Source of the DNA: a virus
IMG/VR virus record: IMGVR_UViG_3300024348_000001
Location: 122,055 to 186,054 of that record
Reading direction: 5' to 3' (one strand)
DNA length: 64,000 bases
The position numbers and the translations under genes are program-made. Each line of letters starts with the position of its first letter. Positions within the stretch are counted from its first letter, which is position 1. The notes beneath the pieces are model-generated. The model was not told the origin of the DNA, searched no databases, and worked only from the letters and a program-made list of their open reading frames with translations. This document shows, piece after piece, positions 18,956 to 57,411 of the stretch.

Positions 18956-19342
18956 TTACTGGTTGCGAAGAGCGGCCTGAAGCTCCATAGCTTCGGCGGC
19001 CTTCAGGGAAACGACCGAGTCGTAGATCTCAGGATTCTGCATCAAAGCAGCCGCAAGATCGCTAGGTGCCGAAACAGGCGCACTGGCAGTCTTGTTAAAC
19101 CCAAGAACATTTTGAAGCGCGTCCTTGGCGTTAGCAATTGGATCATACGCTTCGCTAGCAGTTTTGATCTGGCCCTGCTGATGCATGGCAAACAGCATTT
19201 CAGCTGTTTCGAGAAGATCATGCGCTTGCTTTTCGTTTTGCGGTACAAAACCAGTAGCTGCGGCAAATTTCTCAAAAATCAAACCGTTGTGCACGTTGCT
19301 AGCAAGTCGGGCAAAAGCGGTTTCGGGATCAGGCATGCTCAT
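18956..19342 (-). CDS. Hypothetical head-associated protein with K-x-A motifs
   Basis: 128 aa; EKFAA, EKQAH, IKTAS, NKTAS; TAAGGA RBS. Confidence 0.6.
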   Translation of the reverse strand: MSMPDPETAFARLASNVHNGLIFEKFAAATGFVPQNEKQAHDLLETAEMLFAMHQQGQIKTASEAYDPIANAKDALQNVLGFNKTASAPVSAPSDLAAALMQNPEIYDSVVSLKAAEAMELQAALRNQ

Positions 19343-19351
19343 GGCAATTCC

Positions 19352-19657
19352 TTATGCTTGGTTGTTAAAGAAAGTTTGGCCTACGGCGCCACCATTAGCA
19401 TACAGATCCCGACCAGTCGCCCAATAGTTTGGTGATTTTGGTGGAGATACTGCGCTTGAATTGGCTGCGGCAATTGAAGCCAGAGTCGTCAAACGACCGG
19501 CGACATTGTAAACGGTGATTTCACCCAGAGTCGTCGGACCCGAAGGTGCAGGAGTCGGCGTACCAGAAGACTGCGAGTAAGGACCTTGCAGTGTCAGTGA
19601 TTGATCGACGTATGGACCGGCAGCGGCAGTGCTAGACATAGGAAATCCTCCCGACAA
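19352..19657 (-). CDS. Hypothetical protein downstream of major capsid gene
   Basis: Co-oriented ORF; likely start at ATG 19639 behind a GGAGG RBS. Confidence 0.5.
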   Translation of the reverse strand: MSGGFPMSSTAAAGPYVDQSLTLQGPYSQSSGTPTPAPSGPTTLGEITVYNVAGRLTTLASIAAANSSAVSPPKSPNYWATGRDLYANGGAVGQTFFNNQA

Positions 19658-19658
19658 A

Positions 19659-19682
19659 CCCGGAGCCCCTAAGAGCTCCGGG
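19659..19682 (-). terminator. Hairpin/terminator after major capsid gene
   Basis: CCCGGAGC-8 nt-GCTCCGGG stem, then TTTG on the minus strand. Confidence 0.5.
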
Positions 19683-19695
19683 CTTGACCGTTTGA

Positions 19696-20634
19696 TCAGG
19701 CAAAGTCAACACGGGCCAGACCGGAAGTGTGTCCGATCGATCCGCCGAGGGTTTCATAAGCGAAGAACTCAATCATGTACGCTTCGCGACGGATGTACAT
19801 GGTGGTGTCTTCGAGAACGTACGACTTGCCGATGAACTTGGGGTCGGCGAAGTGATAGAAGGTGTTGGTTGGAACCAGACCCTTCTTGATGGTGACGACC
19901 CAACGGACACCCATGAATTCTTGAGCGGACCAGCCGTTTTTCATGATGTCTTCGCTGATCTGACCACCCATTTCGTTCCAACCGAACTTGCACACTTCCT
20001 TGATGGTAATGTTGTTCAGAAGGACCGAGTGCACTTCGAGGTTGCTCGGAGTGTTTGGCATGATCTTGAGCGAATCCCAAAGGGTATCGCGAGTGATACC
20101 GCCGGAGATGGTTTCGTACTGGACGGTGCCCGAGGTGGGAACAGTCAGACCAGCGCCTACGAGGGCGGTGTTCACAGCGCGAAGGAACTTGCTGTCTTCT
20201 TCAGCCAGCATGTCCTTGATACTGTTGTCCGACAACACCTGACGGATGTCCATGATCCAAGTTCTTAGTTCATCCACGTCTTTCGTAAAACGTGGGGTAA
20301 CGATACGGTCAAACATAACGCGGTAACGAGGACCACGGATGTAGAGGTTGGTCGGCAGAGTTGCGAAAGGAATCGAGATAGCTGCTGGGCTATCAGGTTC
20401 CTTGTCAACGATCTTTACTGGCTTGTCGGTGTCAACCTGACGATCCAGTTCGTCGTTGGTGATTGGAATCGGCGGCATAATCCGACGATAGAAACCATCT
20501 TCTCTCATTTTCGTGCGGGTAAAGTCATTGACAGCGTCAATAGCTTCCTTTTCCAGCATCGGGTCGCGAGAAGACAACTTCTCGAACACCGCGCGAGAAA
20601 TAAGCTTGCTCTCATCTTGAGTCAAAGCGGCCAT
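19696..20634 (-). CDS. Major capsid protein (HK97-like fold)
   Basis: 312 aa with strongly biased codons and GGAGG RBS, downstream of protease-scaffold-decoration genes. Contains DMLAEEDSKFL and FFAYETLGGSIG...ARVDF. Confidence 0.75.
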   Translation of the reverse strand: MAALTQDESKLISRAVFEKLSSRDPMLEKEAIDAVNDFTRTKMREDGFYRRIMPPIPITNDELDRQVDTDKPVKIVDKEPDSPAAISIPFATLPTNLYIRGPRYRVMFDRIVTPRFTKDVDELRTWIMDIRQVLSDNSIKDMLAEEDSKFLRAVNTALVGAGLTVPTSGTVQYETISGGITRDTLWDSLKIMPNTPSNLEVHSVLLNNITIKEVCKFGWNEMGGQISEDIMKNGWSAQEFMGVRWVVTIKKGLVPTNTFYHFADPKFIGKSYVLEDTTMYIRREAYMIEFFAYETLGGSIGHTSGLARVDFA

Positions 20635-20669
20635 GAGAATCCTCCAGTTAGTTGGTTAAGTCTAATTCC

Positions 20670-21248: not shown

Positions 21249-21704
21249 TCAGCCAGCCAATCCGGCTAACTTCATCAGCGGAAGATCAGACGCTTTAATT
21301 TCAGACGTCTTGCCACCTACAACACCGGTAAGTGAGTTGTAAGAACTGCCATTACGTGAAGCAAACCCAGCTTGCTTCTCTTCCCCAACGGCTCTTCCAA
21401 GTTCGCCGGAGGTGGATTCACTAGCTTGCTTGCGGTATCCAGCAGTCTTCTGTGCAAGATTTTCAAGCAATTCCAGTGTGTGGGCGTGCGACGAAAGCAA
21501 TGCAGCCGCTTCCTTTTCGCGTCCTTGGGGCACGAAGCCCAAATTTACAAGCAACTGCAAAGTACCAGAACGCTTTTCAGCGGCCTGTTTCTCGCTGTTC
21601 CTGTACGAGGCGAGTACTGCGTTCGCCTTCTTTTCATACGCACCTGCCACTTCAGCAAGTGTAAGTGCGTTATTCAGTACGACAGCCATATTAGGATCAA
21701 GCAC
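21249..21704 (-). CDS. Scaffold-like head protein
   Basis: Helical 151 aa with six K-x-A motifs (EKKAN, EKQAA, EKEAA, QKTAG, RKQAS, EKQAG). Confidence 0.5.
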   Translation of the reverse strand: MLDPNMAVVLNNALTLAEVAGAYEKKANAVLASYRNSEKQAAEKRSGTLQLLVNLGFVPQGREKEAAALLSSHAHTLELLENLAQKTAGYRKQASESTSGELGRAVGEEKQAGFASRNGSSYNSLTGVVGGKTSEIKASDLPLMKLAGLAG

Positions 21705-21734: not shown

Positions 21735-22991
21735 TTAGCGCTTCTTCGAGCGAGAAAAAACTTCAGTCAAATAGCTTTCGGCCATTTTCGCCAGTGCCCG
21801 TTGCGTACGAGCCGATGACATTTTTTCGGAAGGAGCGGGAGGAAGTCCAGCACCTGCTTCAGCACCTTCATCGCCACCGTGGCCACCTTGCAGCAATGCC
21901 ATGATTTCTTCTTCAGGGATGCCCATTTGCTTGAGGGCTTCAATCAATTGTTCGGCTTTGGCCATTTCGTCGCCGCCTTCGCCGCCACCGTGGCCTTCTG
22001 CGCCCATACCACCGAGTGACGCAAGCATTTCAGCTTCGTTGCCGCCGGGTGCGCCACCCGCGCCACCCATGCCGCCGGGAGGTGCACCGCCGCCACCCTG
22101 AGCAACCGCTTCCTGCAACATGTCAGCTTCGGCCTGCTTACGCAGTTCGGCGCTGTGTGCAAGATGGTATTCAGCAAGCAAGTCAGCCTTCAACGATGCT
22201 GCTTTCACAATGTCGGAAAGCACTGAATGCACCATGTTGTCAGTTGCTTGTTTGTCCGAAATAACATTAGCAAGATCGTAACCAACTAATTGCGCAAGTT
22301 CGCCGTCAACGGCTTCTTTGTGCTCAAAGCGTTCTTGCTTCTTAGTTTCTTTTTTTTCGTGTGCATAGCCGTGGGTGCTTTCGTCTTCTGCCTTCTTAGC
22401 AGTCCACGCCACGTGTGCAATCTGTGCGACAAGCTCGTTGCCAATGTCGTTCATGTACGAAGCCAACTTCTCAAGTGAAGTGTAGTTGTCGTACGAGAAC
22501 TTGTGGCCGTCGAGGCTTTCGTTATCGGTACGGGCGGGATGCGCTGAATCCGAATCCTTCTTCCCGGCTTTGGCCGAGTTGGTTTCGTTAGCTGGATCTT
22601 CGCCGGTGGGTTGTTTGTTGGTACCGATTTGCAATTGGTCATCAGCTGCGCTACCGGGAGTAGAGACAGCGGATTCACTGCGCTTGACGTTGTACGTTGG
22701 CATTGCGGCGTAACGCGAAAGACCAGAAAGAATGTCGCGAGCGGACTTGGCAGTCGCAGCGCTATTAACGCCAACGGCACCCTGATCCTCTTTAACATCC
22801 TTATCGTTCTCGGCGCTGCGCGCACCTTCCTGAGCGACTTCGGTACGATCATCCACATCCTTCACAGGATGCGTTGTACCGCGTTGATAACCGCCAGCTT
22901 CGGTATTAGCTTCCGCACGCTTGACGGAGCCGCCAACGGTTGCCAGAAACTGTTCGATCGTATTGATCGAATTTTGCAATGAGGTGGACAT
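21735..22991 (-). CDS. Scaffold/core protein
   Basis: 418 aa, acidic and low complexity, between protease and major capsid genes; many K-x-A/S motifs and a Gly/Met/Pro tract. Confidence 0.55.
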   Translation of the reverse strand: MSTSLQNSINTIEQFLATVGGSVKRAEANTEAGGYQRGTTHPVKDVDDRTEVAQEGARSAENDKDVKEDQGAVGVNSAATAKSARDILSGLSRYAAMPTYNVKRSESAVSTPGSAADDQLQIGTNKQPTGEDPANETNSAKAGKKDSDSAHPARTDNESLDGHKFSYDNYTSLEKLASYMNDIGNELVAQIAHVAWTAKKAEDESTHGYAHEKKETKKQERFEHKEAVDGELAQLVGYDLANVISDKQATDNMVHSVLSDIVKAASLKADLLAEYHLAHSAELRKQAEADMLQEAVAQGGGGAPPGGMGGAGGAPGGNEAEMLASLGGMGAEGHGGGEGGDEMAKAEQLIEALKQMGIPEEEIMALLQGGHGGDEGAEAGAGLPPAPSEKMSSARTQRALAKMAESYLTEVFSRSKKR

Positions 22992-23066: not shown

Positions 23067-24572
23067 TTACACAACCTGATTTTGGCACAGACTCATCCTG
23101 CAAGTCAACAAAAAGTCAGCATTAGATTCTGTAGAAGCAATTTTAGTAAGAGCAGCAAGTTTATAAATAGCATACTCTCGCGCCAACGTCTCTCCAGAAC
23201 CGCCTACCGCCGCAATTCCATAAGTATCTATTACTTCTGGAACAGGATGCTGCCGCAGTGTAGACAACATACATCGACTATCCACTGCGGTTTTTTCTAA
23301 CGAATAACTTGACACTGCTCTGAGGGCGGCGTCACGTTGTGCTACCGATGATTGTTTTTCCAAAAGGGAATAACGAGAATTGCAAATATGCCGATCCAAA
23401 GAACCATCGGCAAGCATTCGACCATATACTCCCGGAAGTCGTCGCTGTGCATCAACAACAACCTCATGTGCCGTTTTGCAAAATTTAGCGTATTCCCGTA
23501 ATGGTAAAATAATCTTGCGCTCGGCCAAAGCACTTAAGGCCGCAGCTGTCTTTTCTGTGTCATTCACCAGCATCTGCAAATCCGCATAATTCAAACCAGC
23601 CTGTACGTTAGCAGCAAATGCTCTGCGTGTTTCTGAAGGTAACAACGCCCCTTGTTCAAGTACGTCAAGACCATACGCCAATTTTACCTGAACATTGACC
23701 CAAGGCCTATCGTATCTGTTGTGATCTTGCTGCAATACCAAAGATAGTGGCGCAACAACACCAAGAGCTTCTGCGGCCTCGGCTCCAAACTTGTCAAAGA
23801 AACCGCCGTCTGATGCAGCCTTCTGAAGCCAGTCAGCTTTATTGGCATAAGCAATACGGTCTGCGGGACGGAATACAAAAGAAATGTCAAAGTAACCGGG
23901 ATTAGGATTATCGACGTGCAGGTGATGCACGTCGTTACCCACTTTAATTAAGCGTGTGAGATTATCTTTGCATCCGCCTGCCTTGCACATCGAAGACGTG
24001 CAATATTCATCTCGTGTGCGCGCGCTGTGATTGCAGTAACTACAAACATCGTGGGCTACACGACAAGCCATGCTCACAGGGAGGTCTTGGCCCATAGCTA
24101 GTTTTTCAAGTTCTTTGTCCGCAACAAAACCTTTATTGCGTTCGGCAGCTTCTTTGGTTTTGTTAAGTCCTACAAGAAGTTCAACACGACGCATGGTGGG
24201 ATTGTAAGCAGACAGTTTTACAGAACCGTAACTCTGGAGTGGATCTTTGTTCTTGTGGTTGCGGTACCATTTAGCGTGCTTAACAAAAGAATCATGGCAC
24301 GATTTGCAAGTAGCTTCTTTGAATCCATCCCCGTTGCGATTGGGACCATAAGCTTCTGAGGCACCCAAAGCAATAAGATGCACAGGTTCTTCGTCTGCTG
24401 CAAATTTAACTTTGTCTAAGTATGGCAAAAAGATGTTAGCGGCATCTCCAGCCCTTTTAACGAAGTCAGATCTGTCCGCACCAGTAAGGCCACGGGACGC
24501 AATCTTAATCGTCGAAGCGATTGGGGCGTCGAAGTCCCAACCGCTTGGACTGATGATTTTGACCATTGCCAT
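23067..24572 (-). CDS. Prohead (capsid maturation) protease
   Basis: NRNGDGF, YRNHK (candidate catalytic His), PVSMAC (candidate catalytic Ser), followed by a CSYC...C...C zinc ribbon; lies upstream of scaffold and capsid genes. Confidence 0.7.
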   Translation of the reverse strand: MAMVKIISPSGWDFDAPIASTIKIASRGLTGADRSDFVKRAGDAANIFLPYLDKVKFAADEEPVHLIALGASEAYGPNRNGDGFKEATCKSCHDSFVKHAKWYRNHKNKDPLQSYGSVKLSAYNPTMRRVELLVGLNKTKEAAERNKGFVADKELEKLAMGQDLPVSMACRVAHDVCSYCNHSARTRDEYCTSSMCKAGGCKDNLTRLIKVGNDVHHLHVDNPNPGYFDISFVFRPADRIAYANKADWLQKAASDGGFFDKFGAEAAEALGVVAPLSLVLQQDHNRYDRPWVNVQVKLAYGLDVLEQGALLPSETRRAFAANVQAGLNYADLQMLVNDTEKTAAALSALAERKIILPLREYAKFCKTAHEVVVDAQRRLPGVYGRMLADGSLDRHICNSRYSLLEKQSSVAQRDAALRAVSSYSLEKTAVDSRCMLSTLRQHPVPEVIDTYGIAAVGGSGETLAREYAIYKLAALTKIASTESNADFLLTCRMSLCQNQVV

Positions 24573-24589: not shown

Positions 24590-26344
24590 TTACTTAGATT
24601 GTCCGTCTCTAAACTTTGCCAGCCTTTCGGCGATCAATTTGCGCGCTATTTCATTAAGCGCAGTGCTTTCTCTTGTTTGTTCAAGGAAAGTACCGGGCTG
24701 CTCTGCGGGATTTTTTGGATCGCCGTACAGCAAAGGTTGTACAAGATTTTCATAACCTTTTTCAACAAGATACGGGCCTACGCCTAAAAGAGCTGCCATG
24801 CGCGTGCGTGGTGCTAAATGGTGATGCCACGGCAACAAACCTTTTACGGGTCCTTTAGGATTGTTTACTTCCATTTTTACCTGATCGCGCAATTCCTTCG
24901 GGTTATAAGAACCTCTAGCAACAGCTTCTGCCTGTGCCTTAGTTTGCTCCGTGTGTGCTGCTTCTAGCCGCTCGCTAGTCATAGCTTCATTTCTTGCCAC
25001 TTGTGCTTTAACTTCGGCTTCTCGCAATTCAGCTAATGCCTCTAGACGGGCTTTAACTGATGCACTATTAGACGGTGCTGTTTGTTGTAACAAATTTTGC
25101 TCTGCGGGCGTAAGAGGTGCTAAACCTACGGTAGATTTATAACTTTCAAGTTTTTTACGCAGCGTTTCAAATGTATCAATGTTCGGTTTAAACGCGTCTC
25201 GCGCTGCTTCAATTCTTGCTGCTTCGGTCTTAAACGCTTCTTGTGCCGCAGTCTGACCTTCTCCGACAACAGACGGCATCTTCTTATTACGCCAAGTAAA
25301 AGGATTTTTAGTTCTAGGATTAAGATCGTCGGGTAACGTTACGTTCGACGGAGAGAAATCGGTAATACCTCGAAATGCCGACAAACCATCAACAACTCGG
25401 TTCATTACATTAGTGCGTCGCGCAGCTCGCTCCGCTGGACTACCGTGTGTACCCACAAGTTCATTAATTTTTGTAGCTACCTTTCCTGTGGGCTCTGTAT
25501 TTATAACTTTTTCCAATTCGCGCAAATTTACAGTTCTATCTGTAGATTTGGCTCCCATAACAGCACCTGCGCTCTGTAAACCGGCCTGTATTGTCTTAAA
25601 AGCATTAGCATCAATGTCAGCCGGTCCTCCAAGTCCCTTTAATCCAGTAGCCATATCTTCGTGCATCGTTGGCAATGGTAACGGTTTACCGTCTGAACCG
25701 ACCGGCATCGTGGCGGCTACTTGATCTTGCGTAGTGCCCATATTTTTTATGTTGCCGCTATTTTGCTCGGCCAACACTGCTTCTTGTTCCAATTTTGGCA
25801 CGGTTGCTTGCACAACAGGATCTGGAGACTTGCGTGCAGTATCAAGCTCCTCTCTCTTTTTAGTCGCTGCCGTAGTCGATGCACTGGTGTAATTTGACAC
25901 ATTGTTTTCGTCAGGAGGAAGATACGTGCGATCGCTTGTAACAATGTCTTTGTGCGCTTTTGCTGAATCGGCCGTAGACCGAGGTACATCTTCTTTGGCA
26001 GGATCGGGTGCGCGCAACGCAGAATAACCAAGACCGCCGGCAAGACCCAATGCACCGCCGCCACCGATACCCAACAAAGCATTATTAAAGACGGATTTAC
26101 GGTCTTCCTTTTTGCGGAACAAGTTAGCAGCGGCCGTAGAACCACCACCCAAAACACCGCCCAACAAAGCACCGGCACCTGCGCCAACCGCAGCAGGATT
26201 GTTTTTGAAAGCTGTTACCGCTGTGTCCACAATTCCGGGTTCAGCATTCTTTTCCAAATACCTGTCATAGGCCCGCTTCACACGCGCATGCGCTGCAACG
26301 TTGGCCAAATGTGCCGCAACTTTTTCTAAGATAGCCCGCTGCAT
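24590..26344 (-). CDS. Putative internal/ejection protein with glycine-zipper helices
   Basis: AVGAGAGALLGGVLGGG and GIGGGGALGLAGGLG; N-terminal EKVA, VKRA, EKNA. Confidence 0.5.
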   Translation of the reverse strand: MQRAILEKVAAHLANVAAHARVKRAYDRYLEKNAEPGIVDTAVTAFKNNPAAVGAGAGALLGGVLGGGSTAAANLFRKKEDRKSVFNNALLGIGGGGALGLAGGLGYSALRAPDPAKEDVPRSTADSAKAHKDIVTSDRTYLPPDENNVSNYTSASTTAATKKREELDTARKSPDPVVQATVPKLEQEAVLAEQNSGNIKNMGTTQDQVAATMPVGSDGKPLPLPTMHEDMATGLKGLGGPADIDANAFKTIQAGLQSAGAVMGAKSTDRTVNLRELEKVINTEPTGKVATKINELVGTHGSPAERAARRTNVMNRVVDGLSAFRGITDFSPSNVTLPDDLNPRTKNPFTWRNKKMPSVVGEGQTAAQEAFKTEAARIEAARDAFKPNIDTFETLRKKLESYKSTVGLAPLTPAEQNLLQQTAPSNSASVKARLEALAELREAEVKAQVARNEAMTSERLEAAHTEQTKAQAEAVARGSYNPKELRDQVKMEVNNPKGPVKGLLPWHHHLAPRTRMAALLGVGPYLVEKGYENLVQPLLYGDPKNPAEQPGTFLEQTRESTALNEIARKLIAERLAKFRDGQSK

Positions 26345-26347: not shown

Positions 26348-27727
26348 TCAGCTCCGTTCCTTTTCAGGTGGACGTGAAGGACGCTTAGCCAAAGTAGAAC
26401 CGCCACTACCCAATTCCTTGAGTTTGGTTTCTGTGCCGGTAATTTCTCCCGACTCAAAGGGTTCAACGCGACCAGCTAAACGTCTACGCAATAAAGGCCC
26501 CATAATTCCGGGCTGTTCCGCAGACCGAGGAGCCATAGCCGCAATTTCGTTAAAAGCACTTACCACGCGATCAGGATCATAACCGCTGATAGGATCTTCT
26601 GCATCTGTCATGAACCGATTGAGCATGGCTTGAGTTTTAATTTTACGCATGTCCGTAAGATGGTCTGCACTATCAAGATCCTTCACCATATCAATCGTCT
26701 GGTCTTCTGCGGGACTACCAAATGGCGTCATGGCTGTACGCAACTGGTTGTATGCAAATAATCCCTGTGTGGGAATCACGCCGTTAAACGCTTTTTTTTT
26801 AAAAATACCTTCGTCCTCATCTTCGTCGTCATCTGTATTAATACCACCAGCTTCTTTGTTTACATAAGCGCTTATAACGTCAGCTTCAAGACTCTGAGCG
26901 CATTGAGCAATTTTCAAATACATTTCTTGAGCTTCATGCATTGCGTGCGCCGCTTTAATGTTGTCCCGAATCAAACTGTATGGTGCAGCATTAATGTCGA
27001 TAGGCGCAGCTTGAGGTTTAATTGTTACGGCGGCAGCGCGTTTCTCGCCTGATACCTTAAACGTGCCTACAAACTTTTCCTGCAAACCCAAATGGTTGTA
27101 CACAGAATCCATCAGTGATTTAACGTCAGCTGGATTAAAGAAAGACGATGCGATTTTTTCCACAACCCCAAAAGCTTCTCGATGATCTGCTGGAGTGCGG
27201 AAATATGACACCAGCGATGCAAACTTGCTGTTTACGGCATCTGCTTTAGAAGACAGATCACGCCGTTGTTCTTCTGCTGCAAACTTTAATTTAGTGACGT
27301 GTCCCATTACAGTTTCAAACGTAGGCACAGGAGCGGCTGTCTTTTGAATTTCAGGCAACTTCATGTGCGCTAATTTTTCACGTTCTTTTTCTTTGTACCA
27401 ATTAGATGGAGCCTTGGCGTAGTCCGCGTGCACATCTTCAGCTTTCTTTTCCGATTTACCGTAAATGCGATTAATCACGGCATCAGCATCAGCCAAAGGA
27501 AATTCAGCAAACTTATCAAGGATGTTTTTATTATCTTCTCGTTGTGCTGTTTGTTTGCCCGTGTTGTAGGCAGCGCACACCAACTTAATCTTGCCGGGTG
27601 TGTAGCGTTCGTCTTTAGCAATTTTAGTAATTGCCGCATCAGGTGCCATACCACCGTTAACAAGATCAACGGCTTGTTTAATAGCCGAAAGCAAGTTCTG
27701 CTCTTCGCGTGAATCCAAGGTTTGCAT
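26348..27727 (-). CDS. Putative internal head protein
   Basis: 459 aa helical with more than 10 K-x-A motifs. Confidence 0.55.
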   Translation of the reverse strand: MQTLDSREEQNLLSAIKQAVDLVNGGMAPDAAITKIAKDERYTPGKIKLVCAAYNTGKQTAQREDNKNILDKFAEFPLADADAVINRIYGKSEKKAEDVHADYAKAPSNWYKEKEREKLAHMKLPEIQKTAAPVPTFETVMGHVTKLKFAAEEQRRDLSSKADAVNSKFASLVSYFRTPADHREAFGVVEKIASSFFNPADVKSLMDSVYNHLGLQEKFVGTFKVSGEKRAAAVTIKPQAAPIDINAAPYSLIRDNIKAAHAMHEAQEMYLKIAQCAQSLEADVISAYVNKEAGGINTDDDEDEDEGIFKKKAFNGVIPTQGLFAYNQLRTAMTPFGSPAEDQTIDMVKDLDSADHLTDMRKIKTQAMLNRFMTDAEDPISGYDPDRVVSAFNEIAAMAPRSAEQPGIMGPLLRRRLAGRVEPFESGEITGTETKLKELGSGGSTLAKRPSRPPEKERS

Positions 27728-34034: not shown

Positions 34035-34056
34035 GGGTGATTCCTTAAATGCTTAT
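33971..34056 (-). repeat. RBS+leader DNA cassette, copy A
   Basis: 84/86 identical to 42753..42838. Confidence 0.95.
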
Positions 34057-34077
34057 ATTGTTTAAAACTTATTTTAT

Positions 34078-41618: not shown

Positions 41619-41709
41619 GCGTAATCCTCCAAGTGTTCAAGTTAGCATAAACATTTAACGTAAGCCAGAGAAAGCAATTATTCACCGCAAGCGTCAGATA
41701 AAAAACTAA

Positions 41710-42816: not shown

Positions 42817-42840
42817 GGGTGATTCCTTAAATGCTTATTG
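42753..42840 (-). repeat. RBS+leader DNA cassette, copy B
   Basis: Matches copy A (84/86) and copy C (64/65). Confidence 0.95.
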
Positions 42841-48383: not shown

Positions 48384-49979
48384 TTACACCACGGCAGAGC
48401 GTTGTTCTTTTCTGGAAACTGGCCTTGAAATGTCAATAGGCTCAGCCGTTGCATACAACTCAGGTGGCGCGTGTTCATATCGAGCGCTGTCACGTTCTCT
48501 CAAAGCACGTTTCAAGGCTTCAGCTTTACTGCCCTTGCGCGTGTAGTCATATGCCAATGCACCTGTACCCAAACCAGAAGCACCTGCATAAAGCAAATAG
48601 AGAGCAGGCAAACCAGCTAAAACATCGTTAACAGCAGATCCCGTAGACACTCCCGGATATTCGGCTACCTTTTGCGTCAACGTCGAATACAACGAATCTA
48701 AAGCCTGTCCAACTTCAGTCATTGTTGCCGTTGAAGATTTTTTCACGTGAGGATCGTGTGACAACGGCGATGCGTAACTACTTAACAAAGCATCATGAAA
48801 ATCACGTTCGGCTTTTTTTCGTTCATCGTCATGTGTTTTTTTAAGCACAGCATCTGTTAAAAGTTGCGTACCTTTGTAACCACCCAACAACCCACCACCA
48901 CCAGCTAATGCTAGTGTCGAAAGCAGTAATGGGTTGTCCAATATTGATGGCGTACGCTCATTCGTACCGAATAAGTAATTAGACCAACCTTGTTCTCCAG
49001 ATTCTTTAATGCGTTCAACGGGGTACGTAAAATCAAAGTTACGATTAATTTTACTTTTGGGTTTAGGCTTGTTAAACATTTTGCTTAATGCGTAAACACC
49101 ACCAAGACCCGCACCGCCGGCAAGCCCTAACAATGCCGCACGACGAACCATGTCATTTTCATACCACGCTTTGACGCCTGCATCATTTTTTGAAGCTAAA
49201 GTTGGAGTAGGCGCACTACTTGTTCCACTTGTTCCATTTGTTTCACTAGGTTTAGACCCTGTTAGTGCTGCCATTGGCGCACCGATTACGCTGCTAATAT
49301 TTTTTGGTGTTACATTGTTTGTAACGCTTTGTCCCCAAGATTTTAATGTATCAGCAATTGCATTTGTGGCGCTCGTAATAAAAGGAGGCGCCCCTGCGCC
49401 ACGCGGAGGAGGAGGAACGGTTTGTGGCGCAGTTAAACCTGTTGCTGCATTGTTTTGTACATTAGGTGTTACTTGAGTTTTTGGCGGTCCGGGATGACTT
49501 GTCGGTAAATTATCAAGTTCGTGATTGCCGCGAAATGGTGGTTTAAATTCCGGCAATCCTTGCATGTCTGGATTTTTAGCTTTTGCTTCTGCGGCTCTGC
49601 GCAATCTAACGCCTTCATCCGACCAGACGTCAAATATTTTTGGCTTACCGTCAGGTCCCACGCCAGTCCGATCTGCTATTTCCTGTTTTGCTTCTCTTTC
49701 TTCAAACAATTTTTTAATTCTTTGTGCTTCTGCGTTTAAATTGTTTTGGACGTTTAAGCCTGCCGGCCCCAGTAAAACAGCGTTGCCTAATGGATTTTCG
49801 TTGTTTGTTGCAAGTAAAGCTTGCGCAATGTCATAAACCGAAGGATTGGATTGATTGTTGCGTACTGCGGCTCCGTCAAAAATAGGAGGAAAGCTGCCGC
49901 CAACCGCCGGAAAATAAGGATTATCACTTTGTTTCTCAAAAATCTTGCTGAGCAACATTCTAGCCATATCACTGTTCAT
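48384..49979 (-). CDS. Putative internal/ejection protein with three glycine-rich hydrophobic helices
   Basis: AALLGLAGGAGLGG, LALAGGGGLLGG, LYAGASGLGTGALA; K-x-A/S motifs. Confidence 0.5.
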   Translation of the reverse strand: MNSDMARMLLSKIFEKQSDNPYFPAVGGSFPPIFDGAAVRNNQSNPSVYDIAQALLATNNENPLGNAVLLGPAGLNVQNNLNAEAQRIKKLFEEREAKQEIADRTGVGPDGKPKIFDVWSDEGVRLRRAAEAKAKNPDMQGLPEFKPPFRGNHELDNLPTSHPGPPKTQVTPNVQNNAATGLTAPQTVPPPPRGAGAPPFITSATNAIADTLKSWGQSVTNNVTPKNISSVIGAPMAALTGSKPSETNGTSGTSSAPTPTLASKNDAGVKAWYENDMVRRAALLGLAGGAGLGGVYALSKMFNKPKPKSKINRNFDFTYPVERIKESGEQGWSNYLFGTNERTPSILDNPLLLSTLALAGGGGLLGGYKGTQLLTDAVLKKTHDDERKKAERDFHDALLSSYASPLSHDPHVKKSSTATMTEVGQALDSLYSTLTQKVAEYPGVSTGSAVNDVLAGLPALYLLYAGASGLGTGALAYDYTRKGSKAEALKRALRERDSARYEHAPPELYATAEPIDISRPVSRKEQRSAVV

Positions 49980-50359
49980 TTGGGAGCTCCCGGCAAAATC
50001 GACGACATGCTCATATTCATCGGAGCGCCGTCTTCCATGTAAAACTCAGCCCATTCAATATAATGCTTGGGTTCCTTATTCACAAAGCGTTCAACATGTA
50101 AACACTTATACCAACCGTTAATGCAAGCATCGAGGACTTTGACGTACTCTGCGTTCTGCTCAGGAATAGTAACGTCAAATATGCCGTTCTTGACGTCGGC
50201 TACCCTGACGGCTCTTGACTCATATTCTTCATCAGGCATAACAGGCGGCTGAATTCCTCTAAAAGGCAATCCGTCCTGTTCAGCCCTTCCCCAAAACAAT
50301 TGTCTTCCGTCCGCTGTTTTTTTCTGTGTCTGCGCGTATTTCACCAAGCTATGCGGCAC
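49976..50359 (-). CDS. Hypothetical protein
   Basis: 127 aa; N-terminal VKYA; AGGAG RBS. Confidence 0.6.
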   Translation of the reverse strand: MPHSLVKYAQTQKKTADGRQLFWGRAEQDGLPFRGIQPPVMPDEEYESRAVRVADVKNGIFDVTIPEQNAEYVKVLDACINGWYKCLHVERFVNKEPKHYIEWAEFYMEDGAPMNMSMSSILPGAPK

Positions 50360-50373
50360 GGCTCACTCCTAGA

Positions 50374-50811
50374 TTAAAGCATCGGTCTACCACCACGACC
50401 CGAATCCTGTTCTCGATACTGGCGTAAGTTCTTCTCGCGTTCAAGCTGTTTAATTTGCCTGCGGTACTCACTCATTAGTTCTTCGTGCTGAATGTCTTTC
50501 ACAGTATCATCTGTTGGCTCCTGCAACTTGGCTAGTGCTCTTCCACCCAAAGCTCCCACAACAGGAGGTGCCATCAACGCCAAAGGAAGGCCAACGTTCT
50601 GAAGCGCAGTACCAGCGCCAGTTAAAGTAGAACCGCCTAATCCCATCAATGTCTTAAAAATACTGTCTTCGGCTTGCTTAACGCGGCTCTGTGCCGTTTT
50701 AACTTTTTCCAATATTTCGTCCGGTGTCAGCCCTTCCTCGGCGCATTTCTCAAGAAACGCCACTTTGAACTGATCCCTTGGCGACAAATCCTTAATCAAA
50801 TCAGAGATCAT
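50374..50811 (-). CDS. Putative internal protein with glycine-rich hydrophobic segment
   Basis: FKVA, EKCA, VKTA, VKQA, then LMGLGG...VVGALGG. Confidence 0.55.
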   Translation of the reverse strand: MISDLIKDLSPRDQFKVAFLEKCAEEGLTPDEILEKVKTAQSRVKQAEDSIFKTLMGLGGSTLTGAGTALQNVGLPLALMAPPVVGALGGRALAKLQEPTDDTVKDIQHEELMSEYRRQIKQLEREKNLRQYREQDSGRGGRPML

Positions 50812-50850
50812 GATAGTTACCTCGTTCGTGAAAAACTAGATTGTTTGGAA

Positions 50851-52029
50851 TTATAACAACTCAATGGCTGGAGTCTTGGGTGGTTTGTCTGTAGGAACAG
50901 GCGCAGGCATTGTTTTAATCCCGTTGCCTTTAGGACCTTTGCCTCGAATAGCCGGCATTAACTCAAAAGGCGGCGGTACTGGGCCTTTAGGTGCGTTACC
51001 GAACCTTGGATCCATTTTGTCCCCGGCCGGATTAGCCGGCATATTAGGTCTAATAGGAAGCCTTGGATTCATTTTGTCACCGGCAGGATTAACCGGCATA
51101 TTAGGTCTAATAGGAAGCCTTGGATCCATCTGACCACCGCCGTTAAATCCCGGCATCACCACAGCCCCACCCATGCCTCGTTGCGGAAGAAATTGATTTC
51201 TACCTCCATTGAGTCCCGGCATTACTACGGGACCACCCATACCTCGCTGTGGTTGTTTGAAAAAAGGATTATTGCCGCCTAAGCTAAATAACCACGACGG
51301 CAAATCAGACCAACCCTCAGCTTGTTTAGTGTGATGCATTTGTGCGGATAATCTTCCCAAGTCGGCCGCAGTGTGCATATTTAATTCGCCAGATTCTTTT
51401 TCAATTTTTGGCTTTTTAAAATACTTTTCGGTTATCACGTCAAGAGGATGTGTCCCGGCAGGAAATGCTTCGTCCCGTTCCATATAATCAGGTGTTTTTA
51501 AACGTAACAATTCAGCCAACCCTGCCCGTGCTTTGCGTGGGTGTTCCATAGAATAGTAATTTGGCATTGAGCTTTCATTTGTATCATCAATTTGCTTTGC
51601 GGCCATGAGCCTTTTTATAGCTTCGTCTGCGGAATACATACTTGAAGGATCAGCATACTGTTCGCCATAAAACTTAACATCGGCTCCGCGTGCTTTTGCT
51701 GCATCTGCCAATGTTTTAGTCATGTCGATAATGCGCTTTCGGCTCCGATGCAAAGGCCTGTCGTCGTAAGCAGGTCCACCATCCAACCAACGATCATATT
51801 CGTATCCAGTGTCACTTCCGCCATACGCCGACTTCTCAACATTTCGTTTTGTTTTATTTGTTTCTTTAAGCCAAGCATGCATGTCATTGCGTATGTCGTG
51901 AAACTCTTCAGGAATGTCCTTAGTCATTTTTTTGTATTCAGCTGCGTCACTTTTAGCTTTGCGCTTTGGCTCAGTGTCCTTAGCTTGCTTTTGTGCGGTA
52001 AGCATTCCCAATTCAGCAGCAGTAAACAT
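50851..52029 (-). CDS. Leader-tagged cargo protein 5 with a second, internal leader
   Basis: MFTAAELGMLTAQKQA at the start; MHTAADLGRLSAQMHHTKQA internally; C-terminal 19-aa repeats (MxPRLPIRPNMPxNPAGDK). Confidence 0.7.
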   Translation of the reverse strand: MFTAAELGMLTAQKQAKDTEPKRKAKSDAAEYKKMTKDIPEEFHDIRNDMHAWLKETNKTKRNVEKSAYGGSDTGYEYDRWLDGGPAYDDRPLHRSRKRIIDMTKTLADAAKARGADVKFYGEQYADPSSMYSADEAIKRLMAAKQIDDTNESSMPNYYSMEHPRKARAGLAELLRLKTPDYMERDEAFPAGTHPLDVITEKYFKKPKIEKESGELNMHTAADLGRLSAQMHHTKQAEGWSDLPSWLFSLGGNNPFFKQPQRGMGGPVVMPGLNGGRNQFLPQRGMGGAVVMPGFNGGGQMDPRLPIRPNMPVNPAGDKMNPRLPIRPNMPANPAGDKMDPRFGNAPKGPVPPPFELMPAIRGKGPKGNGIKTMPAPVPTDKPPKTPAIELL

Positions 52030-52047
52030 GTTTAACCCCTTAAGCAC

Positions 52048-53259: not shown

Positions 53260-53654
53260 ATGACGCTGTTCTTTCCCGGAACGACAACGGTTACGGGACG
53301 ACGGCGCACTAAATCCCGACGGGCCGAAGCGTCATCAGGAGATCCTTGTTCGCGCGCCTCTTGCACTAAGTTTTCCATTTTATCAATAAACCGCTGCAAA
53401 TCTTCAATGTTGTCCATAGCCATATAAGAATTGTCGCCGGGATTGTCTCTGAGATGCTTGAGGCCGTTCTTAACCATTTCGCTCATGGCGCTCATTCTGG
53501 CTAAGGCTTCTCTGACAGAAAGGATTTGGTAACTGTTGTCGCGAGAATCTTCTATGCGAATAAGACCACGTTCCGCCCACACCCTGAGATGCCTGTATTG
53601 CGCGAGACCGTGATCAAGATTAGTAAAAAGCATGATTACCTCAATAGGACACAA
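53256..53654 (-). CDS. Hypothetical protein
   Basis: Co-oriented ORF; likely start ATG 53633 behind a GAGG RBS. Confidence 0.55.
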   Translation of the reverse strand: MCPIEVIMLFTNLDHGLAQYRHLRVWAERGLIRIEDSRDNSYQILSVREALARMSAMSEMVKNGLKHLRDNPGDNSYMAMDNIEDLQRFIDKMENLVQEAREQGSPDDASARRDLVRRRPVTVVVPGKNSVM

Positions 53655-54195
53655 CGTTACTCGGGGTGATTGTAGTCGGAGTCATTATTTCAATTCTTGG
53701 GTAAATGTCCATCCCCATGTATTTCTCTGTCTGCAACGTACCAGCGTCTTTCGCCGCACGCCAACGTTTTAACGCTTGTTTCAAACCTTTTTCACCAAAA
53801 GTAGTGCGTGATTTGCCTGCGCCTACTACATCAAAAAACGAACTGTTTACGATATTTGGCGCTAATGGAGCTTCGTGCCGATAATCTCCAGTGCCGGGTG
53901 CCCCAAACATTTCATGATCTGCAAGTGTCGCATACAAGAATGAATTGTTGGGATCTGAAGGGACATTGCGCGCGGCCAGACGCTTGTGCAATTCTTTTTC
54001 AAACCAACGTCTTTTGTCTACGTAAGCTTTTACCTTGTCAGGATCGCTTGCCCACCTGCCTTTTGTGCGGTGTGCAGTCAATTCGTCATATGACAATGGT
54101 TTAAGTTGATCACGTTTGTCACGGGCGTAATGGACCAACGTGTAATCTTCTGCATACTTAGCCGCAAGTTGACCGAGTTCGTGTGCAGTAATCAT
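53641..54195 (-). CDS. Leader-tagged cargo protein 6
   Basis: MITAHELGQLAAKYA; AAGGAG RBS. Confidence 0.7.
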   Translation of the reverse strand: MITAHELGQLAAKYAEDYTLVHYARDKRDQLKPLSYDELTAHRTKGRWASDPDKVKAYVDKRRWFEKELHKRLAARNVPSDPNNSFLYATLADHEMFGAPGTGDYRHEAPLAPNIVNSSFFDVVGAGKSRTTFGEKGLKQALKRWRAAKDAGTLQTEKYMGMDIYPRIEIMTPTTITPSNVVSY

Positions 54196-54210
54196 CACTA
54201 ACTCCTTGTG

Positions 54211-54528
54211 TCAACAATTCCATTTACGCAAAGCCTTGTTAATACGGCTGTCAGGATCATTGGCCGTTTCACTACTTGTCAGCTTACTCTTCATGCCACC
54301 CATTCGTGCACAGAAGCTTGCCTTACGTCCTGCGCGCTCTCCTGTGGGTTTGTCTTCCGTCACAGGAGGTTTAATGTCTTGACCCTGTGCTTTGAGGCTA
54401 GCACGTCCTTTGGCGTTTAAGCCACCTGACTCGCTCTTGCCTTCAGCGCGCGTCCATGCACCTTCAGCAGCTTTGATCAAGTTAGCTGTGTGCTGCGCTG
54501 CAAGTACGCCAAGATCGTGTGCAGTCAT
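54211..54528 (-). CDS. Leader-tagged cargo protein 7, DUF6321-like basic protein
   Basis: MTAHDLGVLAAQHTANLIKAA, then AWTRAEGKSESGGLNAKGRAS...RKASFCARM...SRINKALRKWNC. Confidence 0.7.
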   Translation of the reverse strand: MTAHDLGVLAAQHTANLIKAAEGAWTRAEGKSESGGLNAKGRASLKAQGQDIKPPVTEDKPTGERAGRKASFCARMGGMKSKLTSSETANDPDSRINKALRKWNC

Positions 54529-54549
54529 TGTGAGTCACCCCTTAAGTGC

Positions 54550-55716
54550 TTATACGTTTGTTCCGGGTGCCTGTCTTTGTTTGTTTTGCACCACGGACGA
54601 CAAGATCTGAAGAATGGCTTTTCTTTTAAGTTCAGGATTAGACATGATGGTGGGAAGCAATTGTTGAAATTCGGGGTTTACATTTTTTGGTACGGGCTTA
54701 TCGCCGGGTTCTCTGGCAGGATTATAATGTTGCAACAGTGCTTCGGCGGTAGGGATATCATTTAATGCTTTACCGGGATTGTTTTCAATCCAGTGTCGCC
54801 GCAATTCACTTAAATGTGCACCAAATTCAGTTGGCCTTCCGAAATAATCCACACCATATCCACCGGGTTTGCGTAACTCCTCAGGAAATTTACTTTCATA
54901 TCCTTTGAAGATGTCTGGCAACCCAAAGCTCGGAGTCATCGAAAAATCTTGACCTATACGTGACAAACTGTTACTAGCATTATGGTGCATTGCGTGTGTT
55001 AGCTCGTGTCCAAATGTGCTGCGAATCCAAGGGTCTGACGCCGGCCGATTGATCTTGTTCGGGTTCATCATTATTGCATTGGGATTTCGGCTCCAGCCGT
55101 TGCCGGACTGATTAATCGCTTGATATGCACCTGCGTCCCGCGGATTATTTTTATCAGTAAAACCGCCGTGCGTTCCAGTTTCAATAAATGGCGTTTGACG
55201 GTTTTCCCACGGTCCAACAAAACTGCCACCGCGTACGTCAACGGGGTTGTGTAAGTCTTCAGGTTTCCACGTATGCAATCCTTCTCTCTTAGCGTCGTCT
55301 TGCCACCGTTGAGAATGGTCAATTGCTCCCTGATATCCTCCGGGATACTTGTCATACAAAGGTTTAAAGTAAGCGTAAGGTATGATTTGCGTTTTAAAAT
55401 CACCCGTTGGCGGTCGGAAATAATCATACTGCGGTCTTGCGGCTGCTTGTGCAGCTTCTTGAGCTTTAGCCGATCCACTTGCAAATGGGGTTATGGGTTG
55501 TTTTGGATTACCCTTGGGCAAACCCTTAGTTGCACCAAACGGTTGTTCTGATGATTTAGCGTAAGGATTTGGTTGAGCTTGGGGCTTTTGGTCTTTTGTT
55601 AAATTCATCTCTGGTGGTGTAGGTGTAAACCAAGACCGCACAGCTTCCGTTAAATCCGAAGCGCTTTTAATTCTATGCCTAGCACACAGCATTCCTAATT
55701 CACTTGCAGTAATCAT
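54550..55716 (-). CDS. Leader-tagged cargo protein 8, zincin-like metallopeptidase
   Basis: MITASELGMLCARHRIKSA; FGHELTHAMH, then RPTEFGAHLSE; AAGGAG RBS before ATG 55716. Confidence 0.7.
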   Translation of the reverse strand: MITASELGMLCARHRIKSASDLTEAVRSWFTPTPPEMNLTKDQKPQAQPNPYAKSSEQPFGATKGLPKGNPKQPITPFASGSAKAQEAAQAAARPQYDYFRPPTGDFKTQIIPYAYFKPLYDKYPGGYQGAIDHSQRWQDDAKREGLHTWKPEDLHNPVDVRGGSFVGPWENRQTPFIETGTHGGFTDKNNPRDAGAYQAINQSGNGWSRNPNAIMMNPNKINRPASDPWIRSTFGHELTHAMHHNASNSLSRIGQDFSMTPSFGLPDIFKGYESKFPEELRKPGGYGVDYFGRPTEFGAHLSELRRHWIENNPGKALNDIPTAEALLQHYNPAREPGDKPVPKNVNPEFQQLLPTIMSNPELKRKAILQILSSVVQNKQRQAPGTNV

Positions 55717-55726
55717 CGTTGACTCC

Positions 55727-56824
55727 TTACTGCCCAAAGATTTTAGGAATTACTGCGCCGATAACACCTAATGCCACGTTACCCAATCCAAACTGTGGTG
55801 CCGTATAAGGTGTTCCGACAACTTTGTTCAAAGCATATCCAGCCAAAAATCCTGTTGCGTAATTACCCGCAGCGTTGACTGCTAATTTACCTAATTGATC
55901 TCCTGTGACATATCCCGGAATGCGCCTGTCAGAAGGCATGTGAGACGCAGAATACATAGTCGCCAAAGTACCTGCCATCATTTGAGGACTAGCCCCCGTC
56001 TGCCACAGCGTTCTTCCAAGCGCGTCTACATTGACATCAAAAGGCGTAGGCGTGCGGGGAGAAAACGAAGCAGGTCCAAAAGCATCTTCTTCAAATTCGG
56101 CTATCTTTTCGTGTATTAGATCAAATGACAATTTACCAAACATGCTACCGAACATGCTTTTTTTAGGTTTATCCTCGGGGTAAGACACGGGGAATTCTGT
56201 TTCAGGTTTGAACTTAGAATAATCTATTGGGTCAGCGTGGGGCCAATTGCTAAATAAAGACTTACCTTCCATGAGACTAGGATAAGCCCTTAATAAACCT
56301 GCGGCTCCTGTACCTGTTAAGCCACCCAACATAGCTAGACTTGATGGCAATTCATCGCCATAACCTTCAGGCGCAACAGTTTTGATTAATTTGCCCGCAC
56401 CATAACCTAATCCTGCACCGACTAACCCCGACGTAAGCATCGCAGCTAAGGGATTAGGGTGATTAGGGATGGTGCCAAAATATTTACCGGGAATAAAGTT
56501 AAGGTTCTCAGCTATGGTCTTGAGTGTCTGACTATATGCCACTTTAACCCAAGGCTCGCTGTCTAATTCTTCAAGTGTCAATGGCGTTTCTTTGATGTAA
56601 CCGAAGTCACTTGCAAATTTAAGGGCTCTAATTACATCAGCTTCTGGCGTTTTAGGACTAGCGTGTACTGCAAGCTTCTCAATGACAGGTGAGTAGTAAT
56701 AACCTATGTGCCCTGTGGTTGCGACATCTAACGCCGCAACCTTAAGAAGATCCGCGGCGTCTACACACGGCTCCAACCAATCATCAATGGCGGGAATCAC
56801 ATCTGCCCACGTTTGAGGAATCAT
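55727..56824 (-). CDS. Putative internal/ejection protein with glycine zippers
   Basis: LKVA, EKLA, LKFA, VKVA, EKIA; GLVGAGLGYGAG and LGGLTGTGAAG. Confidence 0.55.
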   Translation of the reverse strand: MIPQTWADVIPAIDDWLEPCVDAADLLKVAALDVATTGHIGYYYSPVIEKLAVHASPKTPEADVIRALKFASDFGYIKETPLTLEELDSEPWVKVAYSQTLKTIAENLNFIPGKYFGTIPNHPNPLAAMLTSGLVGAGLGYGAGKLIKTVAPEGYGDELPSSLAMLGGLTGTGAAGLLRAYPSLMEGKSLFSNWPHADPIDYSKFKPETEFPVSYPEDKPKKSMFGSMFGKLSFDLIHEKIAEFEEDAFGPASFSPRTPTPFDVNVDALGRTLWQTGASPQMMAGTLATMYSASHMPSDRRIPGYVTGDQLGKLAVNAAGNYATGFLAGYALNKVVGTPYTAPQFGLGNVALGVIGAVIPKIFGQ

Positions 56825-56868
56825 GGTTTAATCCTTTGAGTACCGTTCCTTTAAACGCTTATGGACAG

Positions 56869-57411
56869 TTAGCGCATCGATCGCATTGCCGCAAGCATAA
56901 GAGCGGAATTATTGTCGGATTGAGTCCTGTCGGCGTCTCTTTGAAAAACAGGATCACTCATGATGTCACGCATACGTGCTCCGGGTGGCAATCGACGCAT
57001 CAATTCTTCTGTGGACTCGTTCTCGGCTTGTCTGCCCCACGCGCCGCCAACACCACCAACAACGCCACCTAACCCCGCCCCAATAAGTCCGCCCGGAAGA
57101 CCGCCTAACGCCAATCCACCGATACCACCTGCGCCGGCACCTAGCAATCCCGTCAGTAATCCTTGTTTGGTGGGACTAGCCATCGTTTCGGCAGGATCGG
57201 TTGCATAGCTCTGGAAAATTCGAGGTATCCAGCGATCTTTACCTTTTTCAATTCGTTCTTGTTCCTCGGGTTCAAATTCTCGTCTTTCATTTATGGGTAG
57301 GTATTGTTGCGCGCCAAATTGCGGCGTTCCATATGGTTTTTCTTTAGCTGTTTTTTCTTGCATGTAAGCGTTGTATGCGACAAAACGTCCAAGATCTGAA
57401 GCTGTGTACAT
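56869..57411 (-). CDS. Leader-tagged cargo protein 9 with glycine zipper
   Basis: MYTASDLGRFVAYNAYMQEKTA; GLLGAGAGGIGGLALGGLPGGLIGAGLGGVVGG; GGAG RBS. Confidence 0.7.
   Translation of the reverse strand: MYTASDLGRFVAYNAYMQEKTAKEKPYGTPQFGAQQYLPINERREFEPEEQERIEKGKDRWIPRIFQSYATDPAETMASPTKQGLLTGLLGAGAGGIGGLALGGLPGGLIGAGLGGVVGGVGGAWGRQAENESTEELMRRLPPGARMRDIMSDPVFQRDADRTQSDNNSALMLAAMRSMR

Follow-up and report, generated by a model that had tools for sequence, protein, structure and literature searches.

Many proteins of the head and cargo region of a large uncultured phage carry a recurrent Lys-x-Ala (K-x-A) motif. We propose that this motif is what the prohead maturation protease encoded by the phage (23067-24572) recognizes in its substrates, and we assign this proposal a probability of about 65%. 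The region lies in a stretch of 64,000 nucleotides (positions 122,055 to 186,054 of IMG/VR record IMGVR_UViG_3300024348_000001), here called the window, which is the final 64 kb of one 186,054-bp virus contig and has nearly all of its genes on the minus strand. Its annotated modules are a tail module, a head module (18956-32407), and a cargo-like block interleaved with two RNA polymerase genes. Open reading frames (ORFs) are named by their lower window coordinate, and positions on the whole contig are marked as genome positions (Table 1).

Recognition of Lys-x-Ala by the prohead protease is, at the level of sequence, strongly supported. This is because the sites are conserved in position, the residues around them form a subsite-like logo (P5-P2'), and the motif is avoided in those parts of proteins that would persist; in addition, the signature persists across phages of unrelated hosts, and the method was borne out by a T4 positive control. 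Overall, the signal is real, conserved and at the protein level, and is best explained as a new Lys-x-Ala specificity within a known type of system.

Enrichment of Lys-x-Ala in Head and Cargo Proteins

An earlier note on the window had claimed that the motif [EIVQNT]-K-x-A/S marks head and internal proteins and not tail or metabolic proteins. The ORFs it named all exist and all carry the motifs ascribed to them, and comparison with shuffled sequences confirmed that the observation is real and stronger than first claimed. For each of 193 ORFs, motif counts were compared with those of 1000 composition-preserving shuffles. Genome-wide, [EIVQNT]K.[AS] occurred 211 times versus 150 expected (z 5.2), K.A 339 times versus 281 (z 3.8), and K-x-[AS] 520 times versus 470, most lone occurrences of the last being due to chance. 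Control motifs were flat genome-wide ([AS].K, z 0.2; R.[AS], z 0.3; K..[AS], z 0.6), and pairs of the Glu.x.[AS] type were depleted in this genome. The sheath, fiber, Glf and reductase-like ORFs were not enriched, as the note had stated.

The K.A excess was concentrated in ORFs 18956, 21249, 21735, 23067, 26348, and 29294, where it persisted under shuffling within 15-residue blocks (p ≤ 0.005), and outside the window K.A was also enriched at genome 75982-77148, which encodes a 388-residue protein, and at genome 13996-15033. A second pattern was seen at N-termini, since K.A fell within the first 45 residues of 22 of the 33 ORFs of the head and cargo block (7.9 expected, z 5.9), compared to 3 of 13 ORFs in the tail block (1.6 expected) and 19 of 126 in the rest of the genome (21.9 expected).

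To score individual sites, we used a position-specific scoring matrix (PSSM) that was trained on relatives only and then applied to this genome. There were 49 sites with a score of at least 3 (5.3 in shuffles) and 22 with a score of at least 4 (1.4 in shuffles), and the great majority of high-scoring sites belonged to the 388-residue protein or to the head and cargo block. The K-x-A occurrences in ORFs 52048 and 52519 scored at chance level.

The codon pattern AAR-NNN-GCN was found 78 times in frame versus 12 and 0 times in the other two frames and 7-10 times per frame on the opposite strand. As the motif is restricted to the reading frame and synonymous codon use at these positions is normal, selection must act at the protein level. 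That the pattern is a by-product of helical composition or a signal in the DNA has a negligible probability. The site-rich proteins are indeed helical and rich in Ala, Lys, and Glu; however, reversed and offset controls were flat or depleted, shuffles that keep local composition left the signal in place, and in two other phages K.A ranked first among 1200 spaced pairs when gene sets were defined by position (see below). A DNA-level motif and a composition artifact are thus refuted by the frame, control and local-shuffle results.

Residue Requirements and Extended Preference

At the first fixed position Lys alone was enriched (2.62x), and at the last fixed position Ala alone (2.62x). Arg in place of Lys occurred at 0.87x, which rules it out as an alternative, and Gly in place of Ala at 0.76x. 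Ser, which the earlier note had placed on an equal footing with Ala, occurred at 0.99x overall; this value rules it out as a general alternative, and only the Ala half of the proposed K-x-A/S motif stands, Ser being accepted at a small number of conserved sites.

A logo built from 2,649 unique contexts in relatives had information at only seven positions, whereas background K-x-A in non-enriched families showed no logo preference of any kind. Leu, Phe, or Ile was favored two residues before Lys, and Glu, Val, Ile, or Thr directly before it; Pro and Gly were nearly excluded from the middle position; and Ala was followed by Ala, Ser, or Glu, with little Pro, and then by Ala or Asp. Numbered around a cut after Ala, this would correspond to an extended preference of P5 L/F/I, P4 E/V/I/T, P3 Lys, P2 any residue but Pro or Gly, P1 Ala, P1' A/S/E, and P2' A/D.

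Conservation across Relatives and Control of the Method

Relatives were represented by 80 protease-centered and 15 polymerase-centered loci from IMG/VR. In the protease, in the 388-residue protein, and in ortholog groups across the loci, sites were conserved in position while their middle residue varied, and the signature was retained down to 30% protease identity.

A blind scan was made of all 400 residue pairs at three spacings (1200 spaced pairs) in head gene sets defined by position. K.A was the top pair in Salmonella phage Arash (z 5.8) and in Vibrio phage D181 (z 7.1), and the second in phage G (z 2.8). K.A likewise ranked first in the head set of the window itself (z 9.6), although that set was picked by motif content and so is not independent evidence. 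When the scan was applied to T4 (gp67, gp68, gp21, and gp22), I.E and L.E were the top two pairs and nothing was found in T4 tail genes, in agreement with the known gp21 motif, L/I-x-E (PMC5694885). The signature thus spans phages of Salmonella, Vibrio and, more weakly, phage G of Bacillus/Lysinibacillus, which points to an agent encoded by the phage and not by the host.

The Prohead Protease

By its fold and its place in the head module, 23067-24572 is a prohead maturation serine protease. The AlphaFold model (predicted local distance difference test score, pLDDT, 78.5) has an N-terminal domain of the gp21/assemblin fold (approximately residues 45-235), which a disordered linker joins to a helical, scaffold-like domain at the C-terminus. 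The catalytic domain matched T4 gp21 (5jbl_B) with Z 11.6 and a root-mean-square deviation of 3.3 Å over 152 of 164 residues, and the next-best structural matches were herpesvirus proteases (Z 4.4-5.2). Foldseek gave a probability of 0.99, with many predicted prohead proteases matching in BFVD, whereas a PDB profile search gave no match and gp21 was not matched at the sequence level. As far out as Arash, D181, and phage G, Ser167 and His106 were invariant and His65 was 96% conserved. Uncultured phages yielded more than 1,100 homologs, on contigs of up to ~240 kb.

The protease is itself rich in sites. Across 120 homologs, ~16 K-x-[AS] positions were conserved (18.8 occurrences observed versus 6.1 expected, and 3.9 for the reversed motif). 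One of them, K251-A253 (23814-23822), is in the low-confidence linker and is kept in 98% of homologs, and the C-terminal helical domain has additional K-x-A sites.

Directly after the catalytic Ser there is a Cys-rich insertion (window 24000-24065, minus strand; residues 170-201), whose six Cys are invariant in the close alignment, four of them out to phage G. The insertion might form a module that binds zinc. The T4 gp21 chain, at 164 residues, is far shorter than the domain that bears the insertion here.

Proteins Dense in Sites

Ortholog ratios (observed over expected K-x-A per group across the 80 protease-centered loci) were raised for the protease (2.57), 29294 (1.73), 40833 (1.69), and the scaffold-like and core proteins of the head module. 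In the group of 21735 the ratio was 1.85 (z 22), with seven conserved site positions. Sites at residues 25 and 60 of 18956 were conserved in >90% of its orthologs, and those at residues 35 and 72 of 26348 in at least 95%. PDB profile searches with 26348 and 29294 gave no match; the homolog of 29294 in Arash, gp218, has been detected in virions (PMC10585845).

The 388-residue protein is a core gene of the clade that is encoded on the opposite strand and distant from the head module. Of its sites, 12 were positionally conserved across 121 homologs (14.1 occurrences observed versus 3.6 expected). No Pfam or PHROG match was found for this protein, which is probably a major scaffold or core protein.

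The Capsid Protein and Other Proteins with N-terminal Sites Only

The profile of the major capsid protein (19696) matched the phage G gp27 capsid protein (PDB 6wkk, E 2.6e-6), and the protein aligned with the annotated capsid proteins of Arash (gp226) and D181. Its identity rests on the PDB profile match, the AlphaFold model having a pLDDT of 42, and tblastn found no match to it in cultured phages. Of the two N-terminal sites that the earlier note had listed, the first was not conserved and the second, at residues 29-31, was present in 39 of 39 orthologs, and Arash and D181, at ~33% identity, have a site in the corresponding position. A propeptide of 31 residues is predicted. In the mature parts of the 39 orthologs there were 6 K.A, compared to 33.5 expected.

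This pattern was shared by a class of 14 ORFs with N-terminal sites only: the capsid protein, 24590, and 12 ORFs of the cargo block, most of which bear a leader (see below). In the remainders of these proteins there were 5 K-x-A versus 23.2 expected (P 6e-6); the remainder of 24590 had 1 versus 5.2 expected (p 0.007), and those of cargo genes 32490 and 34078 had none. Avoidance of this kind would be expected if the motif were harmful in proteins that must survive exposure to the enzyme.

One alternative is that K-x-A is never cut and serves for docking, be it in contacts between scaffold and shell, in recruiting the protease, or in targeting to the capsid. A docking motif would be harmless, and such strong avoidance in proteins that stay in the head would then be difficult to account for. 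A docking role would suit a motif that ends a targeting-like leader and is dense in scaffold-like proteins, which must bind the shell, but we consider it quite improbable, as the regular spacing of 20-45 residues in core proteins and the dense sites of the protease match degradation and autolysis in T4 (gp21 autoproteolysis, PMC12991175), and as cleavage sites usually have small residues at P1' and exclude Pro and Gly.

The Shared Leader and the C39 Peptidase

Many cargo proteins begin with a shared leader, of which there were 12 copies in this genome and none in its four closest relatives. All 12 copies are followed by K-x-A, at a distance that varies from 1-8 residues, and therefore the targeting-like helix and the site are separable elements. 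As in targeting of the T4 type, a short N-terminal peptide ending in the motif is carried by otherwise unrelated proteins; the mature parts of the leader-bearing proteins differ from one another and are depleted in the motif.

Other cargo-block proteins vary on this theme. The second of the two N-terminal sites of 40833 was kept in 96% of orthologs, 48384 has a K-Q-S variant at residue 16, and 50374 has two high-scoring sites. What follows the two sites of 40833 is largely Gly/Ala/Pro-rich tandem repeats of the PPMDPSMMGGA type. ORF 50851, with its second, internal leader, has the appearance of an in-frame fusion of two cargo genes, or of a protein that would be released as two pieces.

A stand-alone Peptidase_C39 domain with a catalytic Cys motif is encoded among the leader-bearing genes (52048-52494), and it raises the possibility that another protease does the cutting, be it this cysteine peptidase acting on a double-glycine-like leader or a protease of the host. 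The leader core does resemble the double-glycine consensus LSxxELxxIxGG up to position -3, and this genome has the leader as well as the C39 gene, whereas its four closest relatives have neither. However, where Gly-Gly (or Gly-Ala/Ser) would be required, alignment on the Glu-Leu core showed an invariant Ala at -2 and a variable residue at -1, and PF03412 was absent from four close relatives and from Arash, all of which keep the K-x-A signature. Persistence of the motif across phages of Salmonella, Vibrio, and Bacillus/Lysinibacillus likewise argues against a host protease, and we judge cutting by any of these other proteases to be very improbable. The C39 protein may be a lineage-specific leader peptidase and may still remove the leader in this one phage, which would not explain the code seen throughout the clade.

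Leader peptides of another kind were seen in distant relatives (L084, L089, L091, and L092) that carry a fused polymerase of 2000-2400 residues. In these, several small proteins share a different N-terminal peptide (aromatic, x, D/N, E, L, x) that ends in K-I/L/M-A, which suggests that leader families arose independently on the same K-x-A site.

Proteins Neutral for the Motif and the RNA Polymerase

In the tail set, K.A was close to expectation (z 0.6; local shuffle p 0.3-0.6). Both RNA polymerase genes of the window lacked an N-terminal K-x-A, with counts at expectation, and no site was found in head-module ORFs 20670, 27739, and 28818. Ortholog groups at or below expectation were those of 19696, 27739, 28818, 18592, tail genes 5750 and 6621, and both polymerase genes; that of 20670 had a ratio of 1.41, but with the reversed motif equally raised (1.63). 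We considered whether the gene for the C-terminal part of beta' might encode a polyprotein bounded by sites, and rejected this, as it has 16 K-x-A versus 14.2 expected, an ortholog ratio of 0.87, and only two weak PSSM sites.

RNA polymerase was the protein most often detected in Arash virion preparations (PMC10585845). These findings show that the further claim of the earlier note, by which sequence alone suffices to read the head proteome from the motif, was too strong: the beta/beta' gene of the window and ORFs 20670, 27739, and 28818 have no site, most single matches are chance, and Ser is not generally accepted. Taken together, a position-weighted score, N-terminal location, and conservation predict which proteins are processed rather than the full set of head proteins.

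The RNA polymerase beta proteins of Arash (gp206, L097) and D181 (0263, L098) begin with M-P-K-x-A, which implies a putative five-residue propeptide that is absent from the homolog in the window.

Position of the Cut

We infer that the agent is the prohead protease and, by analogy, that the scissile bond follows Ala, because characterized members of the fold read P3-x-P1 and cut after the second fixed residue. A cut after Lys by the same protease (K↓x-A), with Ala as a P2' determinant, is unlikely. Lys is as strictly required as Ala, and at least one family of phage prohead proteases is known to cut after Lys, HK97 gp4 removing the delta domain of the capsid protein after Lys103; a cut there would, however, give a footprint from P3 to P4', unusually skewed to the primed side. 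Characterized enzymes of the gp21/assemblin fold cut after the second fixed residue (PMC5694885, PMC4498786), with which the T4 control agrees, and among four near-identical leaders the identity runs through Ala and in two of the four stops exactly there.

Several points weigh against cleavage by the prohead protease after Lys-x-Ala as proposed here. The bond is assigned by analogy only. Some positionally conserved sites have Ser in place of Ala (protease residue 119 and 21735 residue 164), and several conserved sites of the protease are inside its folded catalytic domain, where access would need unfolding. Arash, D181, and phage G do not conserve His219, the residue that sequence order suggests for the triad. 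Because the orthologs share a phylogeny, the z-scores across loci exaggerate how independent the observations are. Virion proteomics of Arash listed 116 proteins and no peptide-level data (PMC10585845), and the percentages of its Table 2 cannot place N-termini; a multi-omics paper on phage G reported no cleavage sites or processing data (PMC12484599).

A Proposed Fate Code and Comparison with Known Systems

We hypothesize that the number and position of Lys-x-Ala sites decide what becomes of a protein within the prohead. Scaffold and core proteins and the protease, with a site every 20-45 residues, would be cut to small peptides able to leave the shell, and the sites inside the catalytic domain would lead to self-destruction as known for gp21 (PMC12991175). 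Trimming would be the fate of the capsid protein and of some dozen cargo proteins, internal or ejected, which have sites only in a short N-terminal propeptide (in this phage often the shared targeting leader) and mature parts purged of them. Tail, fiber, and metabolic proteins would never meet the enzyme and hence would be neutral.

On a broader scale, the clade (>1,100 members, comprising uncultured 150-240 kb phages, Arash, Vibrio oyster phages and probably phage G) may have switched from Glu-directed cleavage to Lys-x-Ala with Ala at P1, while its substrates co-evolved a three-tier code in which dense sites mean degraded, N-terminal sites with avoidance elsewhere mean trimmed and kept, and neutrality means never exposed. 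We see the odds on this joint scenario as evenly balanced.

Among the published specificities found for phage prohead proteases of this fold, all cut after Glu. The motifs are L/I-x-E for T4 gp21, S/A/G-x-E for phiKZ gp175, and A-x-E for SPN3US gp245 (PMC5694885). The P1 major capsid protein is also cut after Glu (E120↓S121, PMC9024508), although that enzyme is only presumed to be HK97 gp4-like. Herpesvirus assemblins cut after Ala, for example at YLQA↓T and VQA↓S in pseudorabies virus (PMC4498786).

With T4, the system described here shares the protease fold (Z 11.6), the location of the protease in the head module, a scaffold core and protease that are rich in sites, and a capsid protein and internal proteins with short N-terminal propeptides, as are lost in T4 by the capsid protein and IPI-III. 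The short shared N-terminal peptide ending in the cleavage motif also has its counterpart in the T4 capsid targeting sequence of IPI-III. It differs in that Lys and Ala are fixed rather than Leu/Ile and Glu, and in that the enzyme has an invariant Cys-rich insertion after its Ser and a 250-residue C-terminal helical domain.

The phages phiKZ and SPN3US are likewise large myophages that package a multisubunit RNA polymerase and process many head proteins; they also have extra motifs within propeptides, autocleavage of the protease C-terminus, and identical N-termini on paralogous cargo (PMC5694885, PMC10052503). In those phages the cut follows Glu, in contrast to Lys-x-Ala here, and the virion RNA polymerase proteins are processed, whereas the polymerase genes of the window have no N-terminal site.

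The herpesvirus assemblins (clan SH) have a related fold (Z 4.4-5.2, a weaker match than to gp21), Ala before the presumed cut and Ser/Ala after it, and a protease fused to a scaffold-like C-terminal part, so that the linker site K251-A253 would correspond to their release site. P3 is Lys here versus hydrophobic in assemblins, and there are dozens of substrates versus two sites. In the prohead protease HK97 gp4, too, Lys is a determinant at the cut or close to it, but this enzyme is of a different sequence family and is not known to follow a K-x-A rule or to process multiple cargo proteins.

If the proposal is true, scaffold proteins, packaged cargo, and the positions of mature N-termini could all be read from the genome alone. 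In a very large group of which almost all members are uncultured, the motif and its logo would offer a sequence-only route to scaffold and core proteins, to packaged and probably ejected cargo, and to predicted mature N-termini; the proteins found in this way are otherwise "hypothetical proteins". A Lys-x-Ala enzyme would widen the known range of specificities, and Ala at P1, as in assemblin, bears on shared ancestry. The combination of leader and site suggests a compact, portable, cleavable tag for loading proteins into capsids. In addition, prohead protease activity triggers the host defense CBASS (cyclic oligonucleotide-based antiphage signaling system; PMC12991175), and thus the specificity of the protease is relevant to predicting which CBASS sensor loops could detect these phages. 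The hypothesis is testable at once in the cultured phages Arash and D181.

Genome Setting

The head-module order of protease, scaffold-like genes, 20670, and capsid protein is common to phage G and Arash, and 20670 is in the place of the decoration gene of phage G. For most head and cargo ORFs, Pfam and PHROGs gave no match, and a single-protein scan of viral contigs found no close match. The portal was not found, as 29294 aligned with Arash gp218 and not with the annotated portal of Arash, and 48384 is in the syntenic place of the portal but without detectable similarity to the Arash protein.

Table 1. Features discussed in the text, in window coordinates unless marked as genome positions.
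Feature	Coordinates	Strand	Remarks
Prohead maturation serine protease	23067..24572	-	gp21/assemblin fold; 14 K-x-A; invariant Ser167 (24072-24074) and His106 (24255-24257)
Scaffold-like protein, acidic, Gly-rich	21735..22991	-	9 K-x-A; directly downstream of protease; local shuffle p 0.005
Small scaffold-like protein	21249..21704	-	7 K-x-A in 151 residues; ortholog ratio 2.85
Small head-module protein	18956..19342	-	6 K-x-A in 128 residues, five scoring at least 2.4; ortholog ratio 2.75
Core protein	26348..27727	-	14 K-x-A; upstream of protease; ortholog ratio 2.0, z 27
Large virion protein, Arash gp218 homolog	29294..32407	-	N-terminal sites and a C-terminal cluster (residues 781-848)
388-residue probable core protein, outside the window	genome 75982-77148	+	15 K-x-A; densest protein of the genome
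Major capsid protein	19696..20634	-	Sole K-x-A at residues 29-31 (20542-20550); rest motif-free
Protein of the predicted "trimmed" class	24590..26344	-	Three K-x-A in residues 8-34 (26243-26323), one in the other 540
Two cargo genes, 32490-34034 and 34078-35517	32490..35517	-	17-residue leader ending in K-x-A (33984-34034, 35467-35517)
Cargo-block ORF 40833-41618	within 40833..43845	-	N-terminal sites at residues 7 and 15
Two leader-bearing cargo genes	41710-42816, 42835-43845	-	Leaders 42766-42816 and 43795-43845
Four ORFs: 48384, 49976, 50374, 50851	48384..52047	-	N-proximal sites
Cargo-block ORF 50851	50851-52047	-	N-terminal leader; second internal leader from Met near residue 226 with its own K-x-A (~226-243)
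Stand-alone Peptidase_C39 (PF03412)	52048-52494	-	E 4e-13
Leader-bearing cargo ORFs 53641, 54211, 54550, 56869	53641..57429	-	K-x-A 1-8 residues past leader core
Cargo-block ORF 55727	within 53641..57429	-	6 K-x-A, 3 scoring 2.4-3.7
Tail controls: sheath 2869-5718 (phrog_279), neighboring tail genes, 1968-residue fiber 9124-15030	2869..15030	-	Not enriched
RNA polymerase beta fused to N-terminal part of beta', 1498 residues	43864-48360	-	Pfam; motif-neutral
RNA polymerase, C-terminal part of beta'	35520-39629	-	Pfam; also acylphosphatase-like, P-loop (kinase-like), and DUF5661 domains; motif-neutral

Elsewhere on the contig, a protein of the Tubulin/FtsZ family (PhuZ-like; Pfam Tubulin, E 2.5e-12) is encoded at genome 18225-19466 on the minus strand. 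Its neighbors, the ORFs at genome 19470-19829 and 21719-24028, have internal copies of the leader core that are followed by K-x-A.

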